From contig OZ024744.1 in NCBI GenBank assembly GCA_964016885.1, positions 44,020,001 to 44,084,000 of the forward strand: a stretch of DNA of 64,000 nt, given 5' to 3'. Positions 27,293 through 61,434 of the stretch are shown piece by piece. Source of the DNA: Eledone cirrhosa (lineage: Eukaryota). A program made the position numbers and the translations under genes. Within the stretch, counting starts at the first letter, position 1. Every line of letters begins with the position of its first letter. The notes under the pieces are model-generated. The model made no database searches and had not been told where the DNA came from. It worked only from the letters and a program-made list of their open reading frames with translations.

Positions 27293-27420
27293 TAATTAGA
27301 TAATCAGACCAAATGAAATTAGTGTGTTTTATAAATGTCTTCACTGTTGTTGTCTGGTTGCCATATTCGTATTTTTTGTTACTTCCAATGTTGACAATGA
27401 TTTTGTCAATGTTTCCCTCT
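27293..27420 (-). CDS. Peptidase S1 serine protease, exon 3
   Basis: TTTTTGCAG acceptor; 128 nt; (L)EGNIDKIIVNIGSNKKYEYGNQTTTVKTFIKHTNFIWSDYLI; GTAAGT donor at 27287-27292. Phase matches exon 2, and the sequence fits the stretch between catalytic His and Asp. Confidence 0.85.
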
Positions 27421-27624
27421 CTGCAAAAATAGTGGTAGTAGTAGTATTAACAGTGATGGTTGTAGTGCTAGCAGAAGTAGTAGTATCTAGAGTAAGAGGG
27501 GAGAGAAGTAGTAGGAAGATGAGGTGGGTAGGAGGACTGGTAATGCAATTAAGACCGCCAACAATTGTTCTAACCATAACACTCAAAGCTAAGGATATAT
27601 CAAGAAGAAGAATCATAATATAAT

Positions 27625-27746
27625 TGTCTCTACTTGTGGCACAAGGCGAGCAATTATCTCAGTACATTACTGGTACTTTATTTTATCGATCCTGTAAGGA
27701 TTAAAAGCAAAGTTAACCTCGGCGCCATTTGAACTCAGAACGTAAA
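27625..27746 (-). mobile_element. tRNA-derived SINE fragment
   Basis: Minus-strand B-box-like GTTCAAAT (27727-27734) within TTTACGTTCTGAGTTCAAAT...GAGGTTAAC; resembles abundant octopus SINEs (from memory). Confidence 0.6.
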
Positions 27747-27873
27747 TGATCATAACTCTATGCTGCAAATTCTAAGTATATAATACTGGTGTGTTTTTTC
27801 CATTCGTGATGGACGGTACGCTTTAGTTACATACACACGAATCTACACATAAATACATAAACAGACAACATTT

Positions 27874-27923
27874 ATTTCAACAAACTTTCCAGTTAACTAA
27901 CATCAATGACTGAGACTCAAAGA
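27874..27923 (+). repeat. 50-bp copy of the 3' terminus of the R4/Dong-B family
   Basis: 48/50 match to the reverse complement of 32913-32962. Confidence 0.85.
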
Positions 27924-27942
27924 ATTATTATTTTTATTATTA

Positions 27943-30900
27943 CAGCTGCATTTATCTTGCTTTATGTTCATACGAGTTATCACCAAGTCACAACCAGTGA
28001 CCCCAAGAGACAACAAGGTCCGCCATGTTCAAGAAAGAATATACATAGTCACACATGCATCTTTAGGTGTTTAGACTTGTGATGTACTTATATTGACAGA
28101 ATATTTCTTAGTATATGGGCAGTTCCCATTAGTACTATCTTTTGTATTTCTCCTATACGCGGGTTTCCTGGGATTTGCGATAAGTAATCATTAGACCCCT
28201 TAGGTATCATTCCTAGAGCGCCTACAACCACTGGTATTGTTTTGCTTCTCAATTTCCACATTTTTTCCAATTTCTATCTGAATATTTCAAATGTTTTTAT
28301 AGATACATTCTTGTCTATTGGAACAGACATATCAATTAGCAGGCATACCCTCTTTTTAAAGTCCTTCAGTATTATATCAGGTCTATTTGCATCTATTTGT
28401 CGGTCTGTTTGGATGCTAAAGTTCCACAAGATTGAGATGTGATCTTTTTCAAGTATGGGAGGTGGTTGATGCTCCCACCAATTCTTTTGATGGGGCAGGT
28501 CAAAATGCTTACACATTATCCAATGTATGTATTGTGCAGCTCTGTCATGCCTGTTTAGGTATTCGGTTGGAGCTAAATTATATGGTCAATGGTCTCTGGT
28601 TGTTTTTTACATACACGGCATAATGGGCTGCATCCATTTTTTATTATGTTGGCTTGGTAATTTTTTGTTGGCAGACACTGATCTTGTGCTGATATAATCA
28701 GTCCTTCAGTCTCCGATTTCAGTCCAGAGGATTCCAACCACTGATGGGTTAAAGTTTTGTCAACATCAGGATTGTTAGCTCTTTCTGGGTATTTTCCATA
28801 CAGAGGCTTTTCTTGCCATTTCTTAGCCAGTTTCTGTAGCAGTTCTTTCTTTGCAGTTACTTTTACCTGCTTTGCTTTTTCTGTGTTTTCCATTTCAGCA
28901 GTAAATGGGACTTCTGAAAGTTGTAGTCCATTACTGTATCTTTGTGCATCTTTTGTAATGGAATATGATCTTTTGATACTTTCGTGTTTCAAAACGAGTT
29001 TGATCATCCAATCATGTGATTCCCTTAGATATGTAGATAATCCAATTGTTGCAGTTTTCAACGCAATGTCTAACTGGATTAACCCACGTCCGCCTTCTTT
29101 GCTAGGGAGATATATTCTATCTGTATCTGCCTTAGGGTGATGCATTCTGTGCATGGTTAAGAATTTTCGAATTTTTGTATCGAGCCTACGGATTTCTGTG
29201 CTTGACCACTTGATGACATTGTAACTGTAGGTTACTACTGGTATGGCAAGCGTGTTTATGGCATCGATCCTATTCCTTGCATTCAATTCCGTTCTTAAGA
29301 TTGCTCTTACTCTGCGGTAACATTCCTTCCTTATCCTTTCCCTCATTGTCGAGTGCTTGATTCCGTCTCCTTCACAAACACCTAGATATTTGTAAGTTTC
29401 CTCTTGATCAAGTTCTCTTATCACATTCCCCCGATCAAGATTAATGTCTGAACTCTTCAGCAGCTTTCCTCTGGTGAACGTTTCTTTGGCGCATTTATCT
29501 AGTCCAAACTCCATTTTAATGTCATCACTGAACTGCTCCACAGTGGATAATAGCCCTTGTATTTGTTCATCATTTTTTGCAAATAGTTTCAGGTCATCCA
29601 TGTAGAACAGGTGTTTAATTGTTTTGTCATTGACTTTATATCCATGTTTTGTTTCATTGAGCATTTTACTTAATGGTATAAGTGCGATGCAGAATAAAAG
29701 TGGTGATAAAGAGTCACCCTAAAAAATTCCACAATTAATATTAACTTCTCCAGCTTCCAGTGATTTTGTTTCACTATTCAAAAGGAGTGTCGTTTTCCAT
29801 GTCTTCATACTGAATGACAAAAACCTCCTGAGAACGGGGGATATTTTGAAAATCTCTAAACATTTTTCAATCCAACTGTGTGGCAAACTATCGAATGCTT
29901 TTTTATAATCTATCCAAGCAATTGATAGATTTTTGTGTCTATTATGACAATCTTCACGTATCATTTTGTTAACCAAAAGCTGATCCTTACAACCATATGA
30001 GCCTCGTTTGCACCCTTTCTGCTTAATGGGAAATAGGTCATTTGTTATCAGGTGGTCATATGTATATTCAGTTAGGACTGATGTTAACATTTTATACATT
30101 GTGGTCAAGCAAGTTATCGGTCTGTAATTTTTGGGATTGTTTGTCTCATCATTCTTCGGAAGCAGGAATGTAATGCCGTTAACTAGCCATGATGGTATCA
30201 TTTCTGGCTCCTTAACTATTTCATTGTAAAGTTGGGCTAACAGCTCATGAGACTCTGTGAAGGCGTTTATCCAAAAATTTTGTATTTTGTCTTTTCCTGG
30301 GGATTTCCATTTGCTGGTTTTTCTAAGAGCCAAACGCAACTGTTCAACTGTTATGTTTTCCCATATTTGTTCCTCAAGGTGAGCTGTATCTTTCATTTGT
30401 CTGTCTATCCATGGGGCATGTATATTATGAACTTTTTCTTCGCTCCAGATCTTTTCCCAGAATTCTTGCACTTCCTCCTTGGGTGGTACTGATTTAGCAG
30501 TTATTGTTGACTTACCAATTTTTCTGTAGAAGTTTCTTTGGTTGTTTTTGAACATATTATTGTCCTTATAGAATCTAAATAGTTTTTCAAAGCGCCCTTA
30601 TACGAGCAGCTTTGGCCGACACTTTTTGCTTGATTATTTCTATCAGCATGTCTATGTCACTTGTTGATTTTATACTGTACTTTCTTTTCAATTTTCTAAG
30701 TTTAGTTTGTTTAACATGTTCACCTACTTTATAGTTTGTTAAAATTTCTATGTCAGATCGGAGAAGGTTTATTTGGCGATTGATGTTATCTTGCCAAGTA
30801 GATTTCTTGTGGAAATTCCTTTGTTTTTTCATTTTCACTCCACATAAGTGAGTGGTGACTTTAGCCGATGCATAATAGAGATGATTTAAATCAGTAATGT

Positions 30901-60191: not shown

Positions 60192-60470
60192 ATAACTTGT
60201 AGGCGTATTGCTCAAATCTCTCTGTATGTCTGTAGAACTCTGGGGCCTGAAGGTAGCGGTGAACCTTTCACATAGCTAGTCTGTATTGTGGTGCTCCGAT
60301 CTCTCTGTATCTAAGGTGGGAAAATATAGGCTTTATATACCTGTCGCTTTCTGTCTCCCACCTTGAGGGGATAGCCCACGCATGAACCTGTTCACACCAA
60401 AAGGGTGGTGACCTAGAGTTTGACTTTTAGGTGTCACCCAAGATTCAAGGCGTGGACAGATTTAGCGACA
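60192..60470 (-). mobile_element. Possible LTR fragment
   Basis: Minus strand starts TGTCGC next to a TA run and has GTATATAAAG (60331-60340). No second LTR or internal domain is visible. Confidence 0.25.
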
Positions 60471-60488
60471 TATATATGTATATATGTA

Positions 60489-61215
60489 TATATGGGGAAT
60501 AGAAATGTCCGTGTAGTTGCTATTTAACATAATTTAAAATGCAGTGGGAATACGAAGAAAGCGAGAACGGGGGAGGGGGTTCCTCATCAGTTTCTATTGG
60601 GGTCTCCACATATTTCTAAATATACCTCGCCACAGGGTGTCAATAACTGGATAAGTTATTGGGCAAACGGAGGAATGAGGGAGGGAAAGCAAAGGGGAAG
60701 AAAAGAGAAAACAGTAACAAAACGGCGAAAAGAAACAACATACCGAGCAATGTGCGAGTAACTATAGGTAGGAGATCCAAGACCACATGATGAGAGAACT
60801 TAAGTTCAAGACTGAGTGCTCGAGAGGAGAAAGACACGTCCGATCACCGCAGTTGTAGGTGAGAAGAGAACTGCTAAACGGTCAGGCGACAGGGTGAAAG
60901 TGAGAGGGAGAAAGGGAGAGGTAGAAAGTGGGGTAAGAGTAGATAGGGAAAAACGGAGGGGAAGAAAGAGGGGGGACAGTAGAAAGTAACGAAATAGGTA
61001 GGTAGAAGGGGGAGAGAAGAATGGCCACAGCCAAAAACATAATGAAATATATGGAGAATAGAAATGGCTATGTAGTTGCTATTTAAGGTAACTTAAAATG
61101 CAGTGGGAATACGAAGAAAGCAAGAACAGGGAGGGGGTAGGGCTCCTTCATCAGTTGTCTACTGGGGGTCTCGGATATTTCTACGTTTTAAAGACAATAC
61201 ACATCGCCCCAGGAT
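60489..61215. repeat. Pair of diverged about 150-bp direct repeats (60489-60636, 61049-61215)
   Basis: Shared GAATAGAAATG..GTAGTTGCTATTTAA..AAAATGCAGTGGGAATACGAAGAAAGC..TCATCAGTT around a purine-rich spacer. Confidence 0.8.
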
Positions 61216-61328
61216 ATATATATATGGGCTGTGTAGACGATGTAGTTCCACATAATCCCCGGTAGTGTTACGTACGTGAAGATAGGGGTGTGTGAGCTAT
61301 AGATATATCATGTAAGTGTGATATTTAC

Positions 61329-61377
61329 CTGCAAAGATGGCCACGAAAGCAAGTGCGAGGCAACTCAAGTACAACAT
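61329..61377 (-). CDS. Peptidase S1 serine protease, exon 1 (signal peptide)
   Basis: CAACC-ATG; MLYLSCLALAFVAIFA plus G; donor CAG|GTAAAT. Phase 1 joins exon 2 in frame (G+TG = Val). Confidence 0.82.
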
Positions 61378-61426
61378 GGTTGAAGAAGAAGAGAAAAGCT
61401 GTGTCTTCTCTCTGTTATTCCTACCC

Positions 61427-61434
61427 TTTATATA
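61427..61434 (-). promoter_or_regulatory. TATA box of the protease gene
   Basis: TATATAAA(GG) about 50 bp upstream of the ATG. Confidence 0.7.

Follow-up and report, generated by a model that had tools for sequence, protein, structure and literature searches.

A six-exon S1 peptidase gene of Eledone cirrhosa swollen by satellites and LINEs, with a duplicate that lacks the acceptor of its Ser exon

The window analysed here is a stretch of 64,000 nucleotides from Eledone cirrhosa (assembly GCA_964016885.1, contig OZ024744.1, below called C28, positions 44020001-44084000), and it holds the first three exons of a predicted S1 serine peptidase gene. The genome searched comprises 3.0 Gb, and C28, C22 and C3 are contigs of the assembly. 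Four copies of the gene lie on C28: copy B, which is the copy of the window and runs on the minus strand, and the further copies A, C and D, of which A and C are complete with six exons, while B has lost an acceptor and D retains exons 4-6 only. We consider it fairly probable that the gene was swollen by satellites and long interspersed nuclear elements (LINEs), and that copy B, without the acceptor of its Ser exon, is a dying duplicate of an intact neighbor.

An earlier note, made from the window alone, had proposed three minus-strand exons of 49, 163 and 128 nt with canonical splice sites, matching phases and no stop codon, and these were recovered at exactly the same positions: they contain 340 nt of coding sequence, have GT donors, AG acceptors and phases 1/2/1, and no stop codon was found when each exon was translated. 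The Asp- and Ser-motif exons, which the note had placed left of the window, were located there in a genome search with a homolog, exons 4, 5 and 6 lying 12.3, 22.9 and 24.0 kb beyond its edge, with the Asp motif in exon 4 and the Ser motif at the start of exon 6. Full copy B has six exons (49, 163, 128, 135, 146 and 159 nt), 780 coding nt and a span of 85,439 nt, in agreement with the more than 61 kb of the note, and its introns measure 17,624, 16,121, 39,542, 10,406 and 966 nt, the first three having been given as 17.6, 16.1 and more than 27 kb. Exon 2 (E 6e-7) and exon 6 (E 3e-8) match Pfam Trypsin PF00089 above the cut-off, exons 4 and 5 match it below the cut-off, and exon 3 has no match. 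Exons 1-3 are not a product of chance, because of the Pfam match of exon 2 and because the same exon order is present in two more C28 copies and in a paralog on C22. The possibility that exons 1-3 stem from several paralogs was dismissed, since their order and strand and the contents of the introns agree in copies A, B and C, and the exons belong to one gene. Exon 1 probably encodes a signal peptide, judging from its hydrophobicity and its likeness to homologs. The 3' untranslated region of copy B (C28:43995830-43995900) contains a short tandem repeat with AATAAA-like signals, whose copy number differs between A and B.

The motifs AAHC, NDIA and GDSGG occur in this order in the DNA of copies A, B and C. 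All 11 database relatives of exon 2 carry PF00089 and show 53-60% identity, and the 10 with a named organism are all octopod, whereas a PDB search with exon 6 returned generic S1 enzymes only. The protein has Ser at position 189, as do most close homologs, which, under the numbering and specificity rule that we take to apply, would mean a chymotrypsin-like preference for hydrophobic residues. A secreted-type chymotrypsin-like S1 peptidase, closest to octopod proteins, is supported as the predicted product, and the assignment in the note to secreted-type S1 peptidases stood, with PF00089 on exon 2 and octopod relatives. In a tree of cephalopod sequences only, the C28 gene was sister to the C22 paralog (100), then to an Argonauta protein (100), among SP1-named entries. 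Copy A and its nearest C22 paralog share 66.8% identity (bootstrap 100), and their nonsynonymous and synonymous divergence (dN 0.24, dS 1.02; 254 codons) indicates a lineage long under purifying selection.

In copy B, intron 5 ends without a canonical 3' splice site (C28:43996098), whereas the other three copies have one; 9/10 splice sites are thus canonical in B, compared with 10/10 in both A and C. The catalytic triad can be joined into one open frame via canonical sites in A and C but not in B. Between -150 and +70 relative to the start of exon 6, copy B has 11 AG dinucleotides, and not one of them gives an open frame that keeps GDSGG. Because the acceptor is gone and no alternative AG preserves the Ser motif, canonical splicing of copy B, provided that the base is real, could not yield an active enzyme. 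Copy B is therefore, as far as its sequence indicates, likely a dying duplicate rather than the working gene, a role more likely filled by a sister copy, A or C. The earlier note had called the gene possibly functional and had tied this to an unbroken Ser exon; in copy B that exon is broken at the splice-site level, and the claim did not hold for this copy.

Several points weigh against this reading. The lesion is a single base in a single assembly, contigs from three DNA-type runs of one sample have the canonical exon-6 acceptor, and copy B otherwise looks alive, with open exons, a TATA box and near-identity to A. Copy B might accordingly be a working gene whose missing acceptor is an assembly error or is used non-canonically; the picture given in the note would then apply without reservation, and the agreement of all three run-contig sets at the acceptor speaks for this reading. 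However, at other sites where B has a private variant, five in intron 5 and four in exon 3, the same contigs likewise give the majority form; they keep the majority path only, losing every other B-only variant, and so neither confirm nor refute the lesion. The three runs behave as DNA, as their contigs cross exon-intron borders and no exon-to-exon joint was found among 15 of 156 joints. Moreover, a real private variant is to be expected, since the flanks of B and D differ by about 0.7% (36/4,551 sites), and D, the mirror partner of B, is disabled in another way. A working copy B is thus judged improbable, and we retain the view of copy B as a dying duplicate.

Copy A is on the plus strand, inverted relative to B, with its 3' end 19 kb from the end of B; it spans 141 kb and is intact. 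Copy C spans 115 kb and is also intact, the exons of A and C are identical, and all their splice sites are kept. Copies C and D sit in a mirror image of the A/B block, the mirror extending over about 1.4 Mb, from about 43.47 to 44.92 Mb, with arms at about 43.47-44.20 Mb and 44.275-44.92 Mb; two parts of these arms, in which a gap may still lie, were sampled only (44.70-44.90 Mb and the greater part of 43.50-43.715 Mb). Probes of its extent found the 42.60 Mb piece of C28 to be single-copy and the 43.10 Mb piece to be a high-copy repeat, which is uninformative. A 3.7-kb direct match (97%), part of it high-copy repeat, was observed near the outer edges of the mirror, between C28:43100001-43103747 and 45068551-45072281. 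The arms differ by 1.6-24.7 mismatches per kb (five blocks), and a 200-N gap at 43,466,437 lies within about 9 kb of the point where the left arm fades out, while no N was found past the right arm, at 44.90-45.10 Mb.

It is probable, in our view, that C and D represent the second haplotype of the A/B block and that both haplotypes were folded into one scaffold, with A/C and B/D as pairs of alleles. Against this, scaffold gaps are also found at the ends of true segmental duplications, and the four copies might be separate loci produced by a true inverted segmental duplication of about 1.4 Mb, which would leave two intact genes, one splice-dead and one truncated. The absence of N at 43.715-44.70 Mb is consistent with four loci, as are the identical inverted pairs on C22 and C3, which appear to be a habit of the family, but the left arm fades next to a scaffold gap whereas the right side continues, and the divergence of the arms is allele-like and patchy. 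The depths of the run contigs are consistent with the A/C and B/D types being equally abundant, as both readings predict. Four separate loci are possible, although unlikely. If the haplotypes are folded, gene counts at C28:43.47-44.92 Mb would be doubled, and folding of this kind can inflate counts of venom genes.

The arm of copy D lacks about 83 kb, including nearly all of the window, and exons 1-3 are lost with it. The single 3-kb repeat of D matches two copies in the arm of B, at window 2379-5326 and C28:44,105,784-44,109,060 (both 93.9%), which fits a deletion in which the repeats recombined with each other. Under either reading of the mirror, the second locus appears to be disabled in both its versions, B and D. 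Between A and B, 5/780 exon nucleotides differ (synonymous, 1/161 sites), whereas the flanks differ by 3.8% within 200 nt and by 8-12% further out (overall 3.8-12.2%). This near-identity of the exons beside diverging flanks suggests that gene conversion between the inverted copies may have kept the exons alike, although part of the flank divergence is fast-evolving satellite, which weakens the argument.

Outside C28, 16 of the 37 exon-2 matches were modelled, and the span from exon 2 to exon 6 was 1.6-16.3 kb in all 16, compared with 64-86 kb in copies A, B and C, so that the comparison of paralogs suggested by the earlier note showed the C28 copies to be far longer; other paralogs perhaps reach about 25 kb, by an unverified pairing of coordinates. 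Compact S1 paralog clusters with alternating orientation and identical inverted pairs lie at C22:20.366-20.462 Mb and C3:91.933-91.948 Mb, and the model at C22:20418300 aligned without the Asp motif, possibly owing to a frameshift in exon 4. The coding share of the C28 locus is 0.55-0.91%. Intron 1 ranges from 17.6 to 54.9 kb and intron 2 from 10.6 to 27.8 kb (A 27.8, B 16.1, C 10.6) across the copies, the largest introns being intron 3 in B (39.5 kb) and intron 1 in A (54.9 kb). The mean intron of O. minor is 5.4 kb (PMC6279123), and in O. bimaculoides genes longer than 30 kb make up about 14% of the total (PMC7222433); the C28 gene is large yet within the octopus range.

Repeats fill these introns, as the note had stated, with about 63% of the intron bases of copy B being tandem repeat (53,384 of 84,659) and intron 2 consisting mostly of LINEs. 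Intron 3 (22.6, 39.5 and 23.7 kb in A, B and C) lies to 99% within a called array in all three copies, the figure being 3-81% for the other introns. The idea of satellite-driven intron gigantism in the note is borne out by intron 3 but not in its scale, as the largest intron has 54.9 kb and is not of megabase size. The satellites are private to the locus in exact searches, which would miss diverged relatives elsewhere: all 54 genome matches to a 24-nt core of the intron-1 satellite fall in intron 1 of copies A, B and C, and all 35 matches to the intron-3 unit fall in intron 3 of copies A-D. When 238 kb of paralog regions were searched with 31-bp satellite seeds, none was found among the matches listed, all of which were the 420-bp intron-4 repeat. 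This unit of about 420 bp, derived from a dispersed repeat, forms an array of 19-22 kb in intron 4 of A and C (C28:43949828-43971382 and 44441129-44460434) that is absent in B/D. The paralog regions have their own arrays of 1-5 kb and tandem repeat makes up 41% of a 785-kb region, so the C28 intron arrays are an extreme form of a common tendency. Outside the gene, other long arrays were seen, with units of 28 bp and 20 bp (C28:44568302-44597262, 44254825-44263252 and 43815001-43817502), long local satellites being a regional habit.

The satellites could be functional, with intron length tuning the dose or timing of the protease, an idea put forward for the giant Y-linked genes of Drosophila. 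In its favor, each satellite is found in the same intron of every copy, and the array of intron 3 leaves about 140 nt free at the donor and about 100 nt at the acceptor; the lengths of introns 1 and 2 nevertheless vary freely between copies, and neutral growth is enough to account for the arrays, given those of the paralogs and the regional share of tandem repeat. We find a function of this kind hardly credible. A bolder scenario, in which a salivary or venom protease gene is transcribed through satellite arrays of 20-40 kb that arose in its own introns and are private to them, its alleles in one animal differ in length by 26 kb, array length sets the dose and conversion between inverted copies keeps the exons alike, is to be regarded as very doubtful. 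If true, such a transcribed gene with private arrays would offer a small-scale model, natural and segregating, for the beginnings of giant introns filled with satellites. The intron-1 array measures 26 kb in A, 9.8 kb in B and 16.4 kb in C.

Table 1. Features of copy B and of its introns, by position in the window
Feature	Position	Strand	Basis or remark
TATA-like box TATATAAA, 50 nt upstream of ATG	61427..61434	-	kept in copy A and C22 paralog; predicted function
Exon 1, coding part, predicted signal peptide, 16 codons + 1 nt	61329..61377	-	splice site, phase, homologs
Intron-1 satellite, 31-bp AG-rich unit, about 313 copies	50411..60191	.	tandem-repeat array
Broken retroelement fragment, intron 1	45095..46468	+	open reading frame (ORF) pieces; no Pfam match
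Exon 2: propeptide end, mature N-terminus (Met, not Ile), catalytic His motif	43542..43704	-	PF00089 match
6-kb LINE, ORF1 and split ORF2 (endonuclease, reverse transcriptase (RT), zinc finger), set between two (ATT)n runs and beginning about 70 nt from the start of intron 2	37471..43469	+	domains
Broken LINE between (TAA)n runs	32912..37436	-	RT match, weak zf-RVT/REase matches
Second broken LINE, same 5' terminal motif, ends approximate	27945..32833	-	domain matches
Exon 3	27293..27420	-	splice sites, phase, homologous copies
Intron-3 satellite, 31-bp AT-rich unit, different from intron-1 unit	1..27150, on 12 kb left of window	.	tandem-repeat array
3-kb RT-bearing insertion within intron-3 satellite	1951..5326	-	one breakpoint of the 83-kb deletion of copy D

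Three LINEs split by (TAA)n runs make up about 15.4 of the 16.1 kb of intron 2 of copy B (Table 1). The 6-kb LINE is presumably L1/Tx1-like, as its domain order suggests to us, the two broken ones we take to be R4/Dong-like, and the fragment in intron 1 is assumed from its motif to be Penelope-like, a label left unconfirmed by Pfam. In the L1-like element, the 705-codon ORF1 is open (window 37675-39792) and ORF2 is split in three. Additional copies of this element are present in intron 2 of copy A, and fewer in C; the copies in A are 97-98% identical, indicating a young family. In a scan of 1.62 Mb that included this locus, (TAA)n/(ATT)n runs stood beside 5/5 of the 5' ends and 14/16 of the 3' ends of L1-like elements and beside 3/3 of the 5' ends of R4-like elements, against a background of 0.2%. 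The single 3' end of an R4-like element that was assessed did not pass the test for such a run (0/1), a point against the proposed reading. The introns of this gene have grown by two routes, local tandem amplification and the stacking of LINEs.

The activity expected of the intact copies is a further matter. On activation of S1A zymogens, Ile or Val is expected at the mature N-terminus. All C28 copies start the mature chain with Met, in contrast to Ile in 16/16 paralog models, and this Met is directly followed by a predicted N-glycosylation sequon (window 43678-43692), unlike in all 16 modelled paralogs. In addition, the C28 copies have 4-5 glycosylation sequons, compared with 0-1 in most relatives. 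Given this N-terminus and these sequons, even A and C may be weak enzymes, and this weighs against an intact, working neighbor of copy B. It could further be argued that every C28 copy, even A and C, is silent or lacks catalytic activity, efficient activation or expression having been lost as the introns grew; the Met with the adjoining sequon fits this idea, and none of the 11 database matches is more than 60% identical to exon 2. The dN/dS of about 0.24, the intact triad, the 10 cysteines and the retention of all splice sites across 115-141 kb argue otherwise, and we think a silent family highly improbable.

The SP1 entries of the tree (SP1-Abd-7, SP1-Abd-10, SP1-Oct-1 and SP1-Par-1) presumably come from salivary glands. 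A passage of PMC4280546 fits this origin, and published work describes many serine proteases expressed in octopod posterior salivary glands, whose activity had not been assessed (PMC7656900; PMC4280546), and serine proteases dominating salivary-gland-specific expression in two octopods (PMC7656900). By analogy, the intact copy likely belongs with the serine proteases of the octopod posterior salivary gland, and a venom or digestive role may be envisaged. A point to the contrary is that the deep nodes of the tree have 13-31% support, too little to show membership of a salivary-specific clade.

Considering all the above results, we propose a plausible history of the locus. A compact gene like the C22 paralog would have been copied to C28 long ago, with purifying selection kept on. 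Short intron sequences would then have been amplified in place into arrays of 10-39 kb, and LINEs favoring (TAA)n would have piled up in intron 2. An inverted duplication may have given rise to the tail-to-tail pair A/B, whose exons were likely gene-converted while the introns drifted. The second locus would now be decaying, through loss of the acceptor in B and, in D, through deletion of the 83 kb that lie between two copies of a retroelement. The intact copy, in turn, would encode a secreted zymogen that is activated by removal of a short propeptide and whose His-Asp-Ser triad cuts after hydrophobic residues, and its product would likely be part of the posterior salivary gland secretion.

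The gene belongs to a well-known protein family, and octopus genes commonly have long introns rich in repeats. No description of satellite-filled introns in a cephalopod protease gene was found in the titles and abstract openings searched, which covered few subscription journals and no supplements. The value of the locus is that of a tidy case study, in which one gene, with compact paralogs and recent copies, shows two routes of intron growth, together with a duplicate apparently dying in two ways (loss of the acceptor in B and deletion in D). One octopus annotation limited introns to 20 kb in RNA alignment, as a passage of PMC9795677 states, and genes of this kind would be missed under such a limit.

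Compared with known systems, the C28 gene has the same single-domain layout of about 255 residues as coleoid S1 proteases (SP1-Abd-7, SP1-Abd-10, SP1-Oct-1 and SP1-Par-1, 'chymotrypsin-1-like' of Octopus, and 'CUB and peptidase domain-containing protein 2-like' of Argonauta), with 53-59% identity, and shares with them the His, Asp and Ser motifs, 10 cysteines and Ser at 189. It differs from them in the Met at the mature N-terminus, the 4-5 sequons and a long branch, and it is 4 to 50 times longer than its modelled paralogs. Like the TAA-targeting non-long-terminal-repeat retrotransposons of the Dong type, for which such targeting is known from passages of PMC3812793, the elements at C28 are stacked and lie in (TAA)n runs at both ends. 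Unlike Dong as portrayed in those passages (PMC3812793), two LINE types share a run at C28, and the 3' run is perhaps the tail of the element itself, the clade labels here being presumptive. As in the intron gigantism of kl-3 and kl-5 on the Drosophila Y, described in parts of PMC6508621, less than 1% of the locus is coding and one intron is to 99% a single satellite array. In contrast to kl-3 and kl-5 (same parts of PMC6508621), the C28 introns have 10-55 kb and not megabases, and they are built of 31-bp units private to the locus in place of simple satellites.

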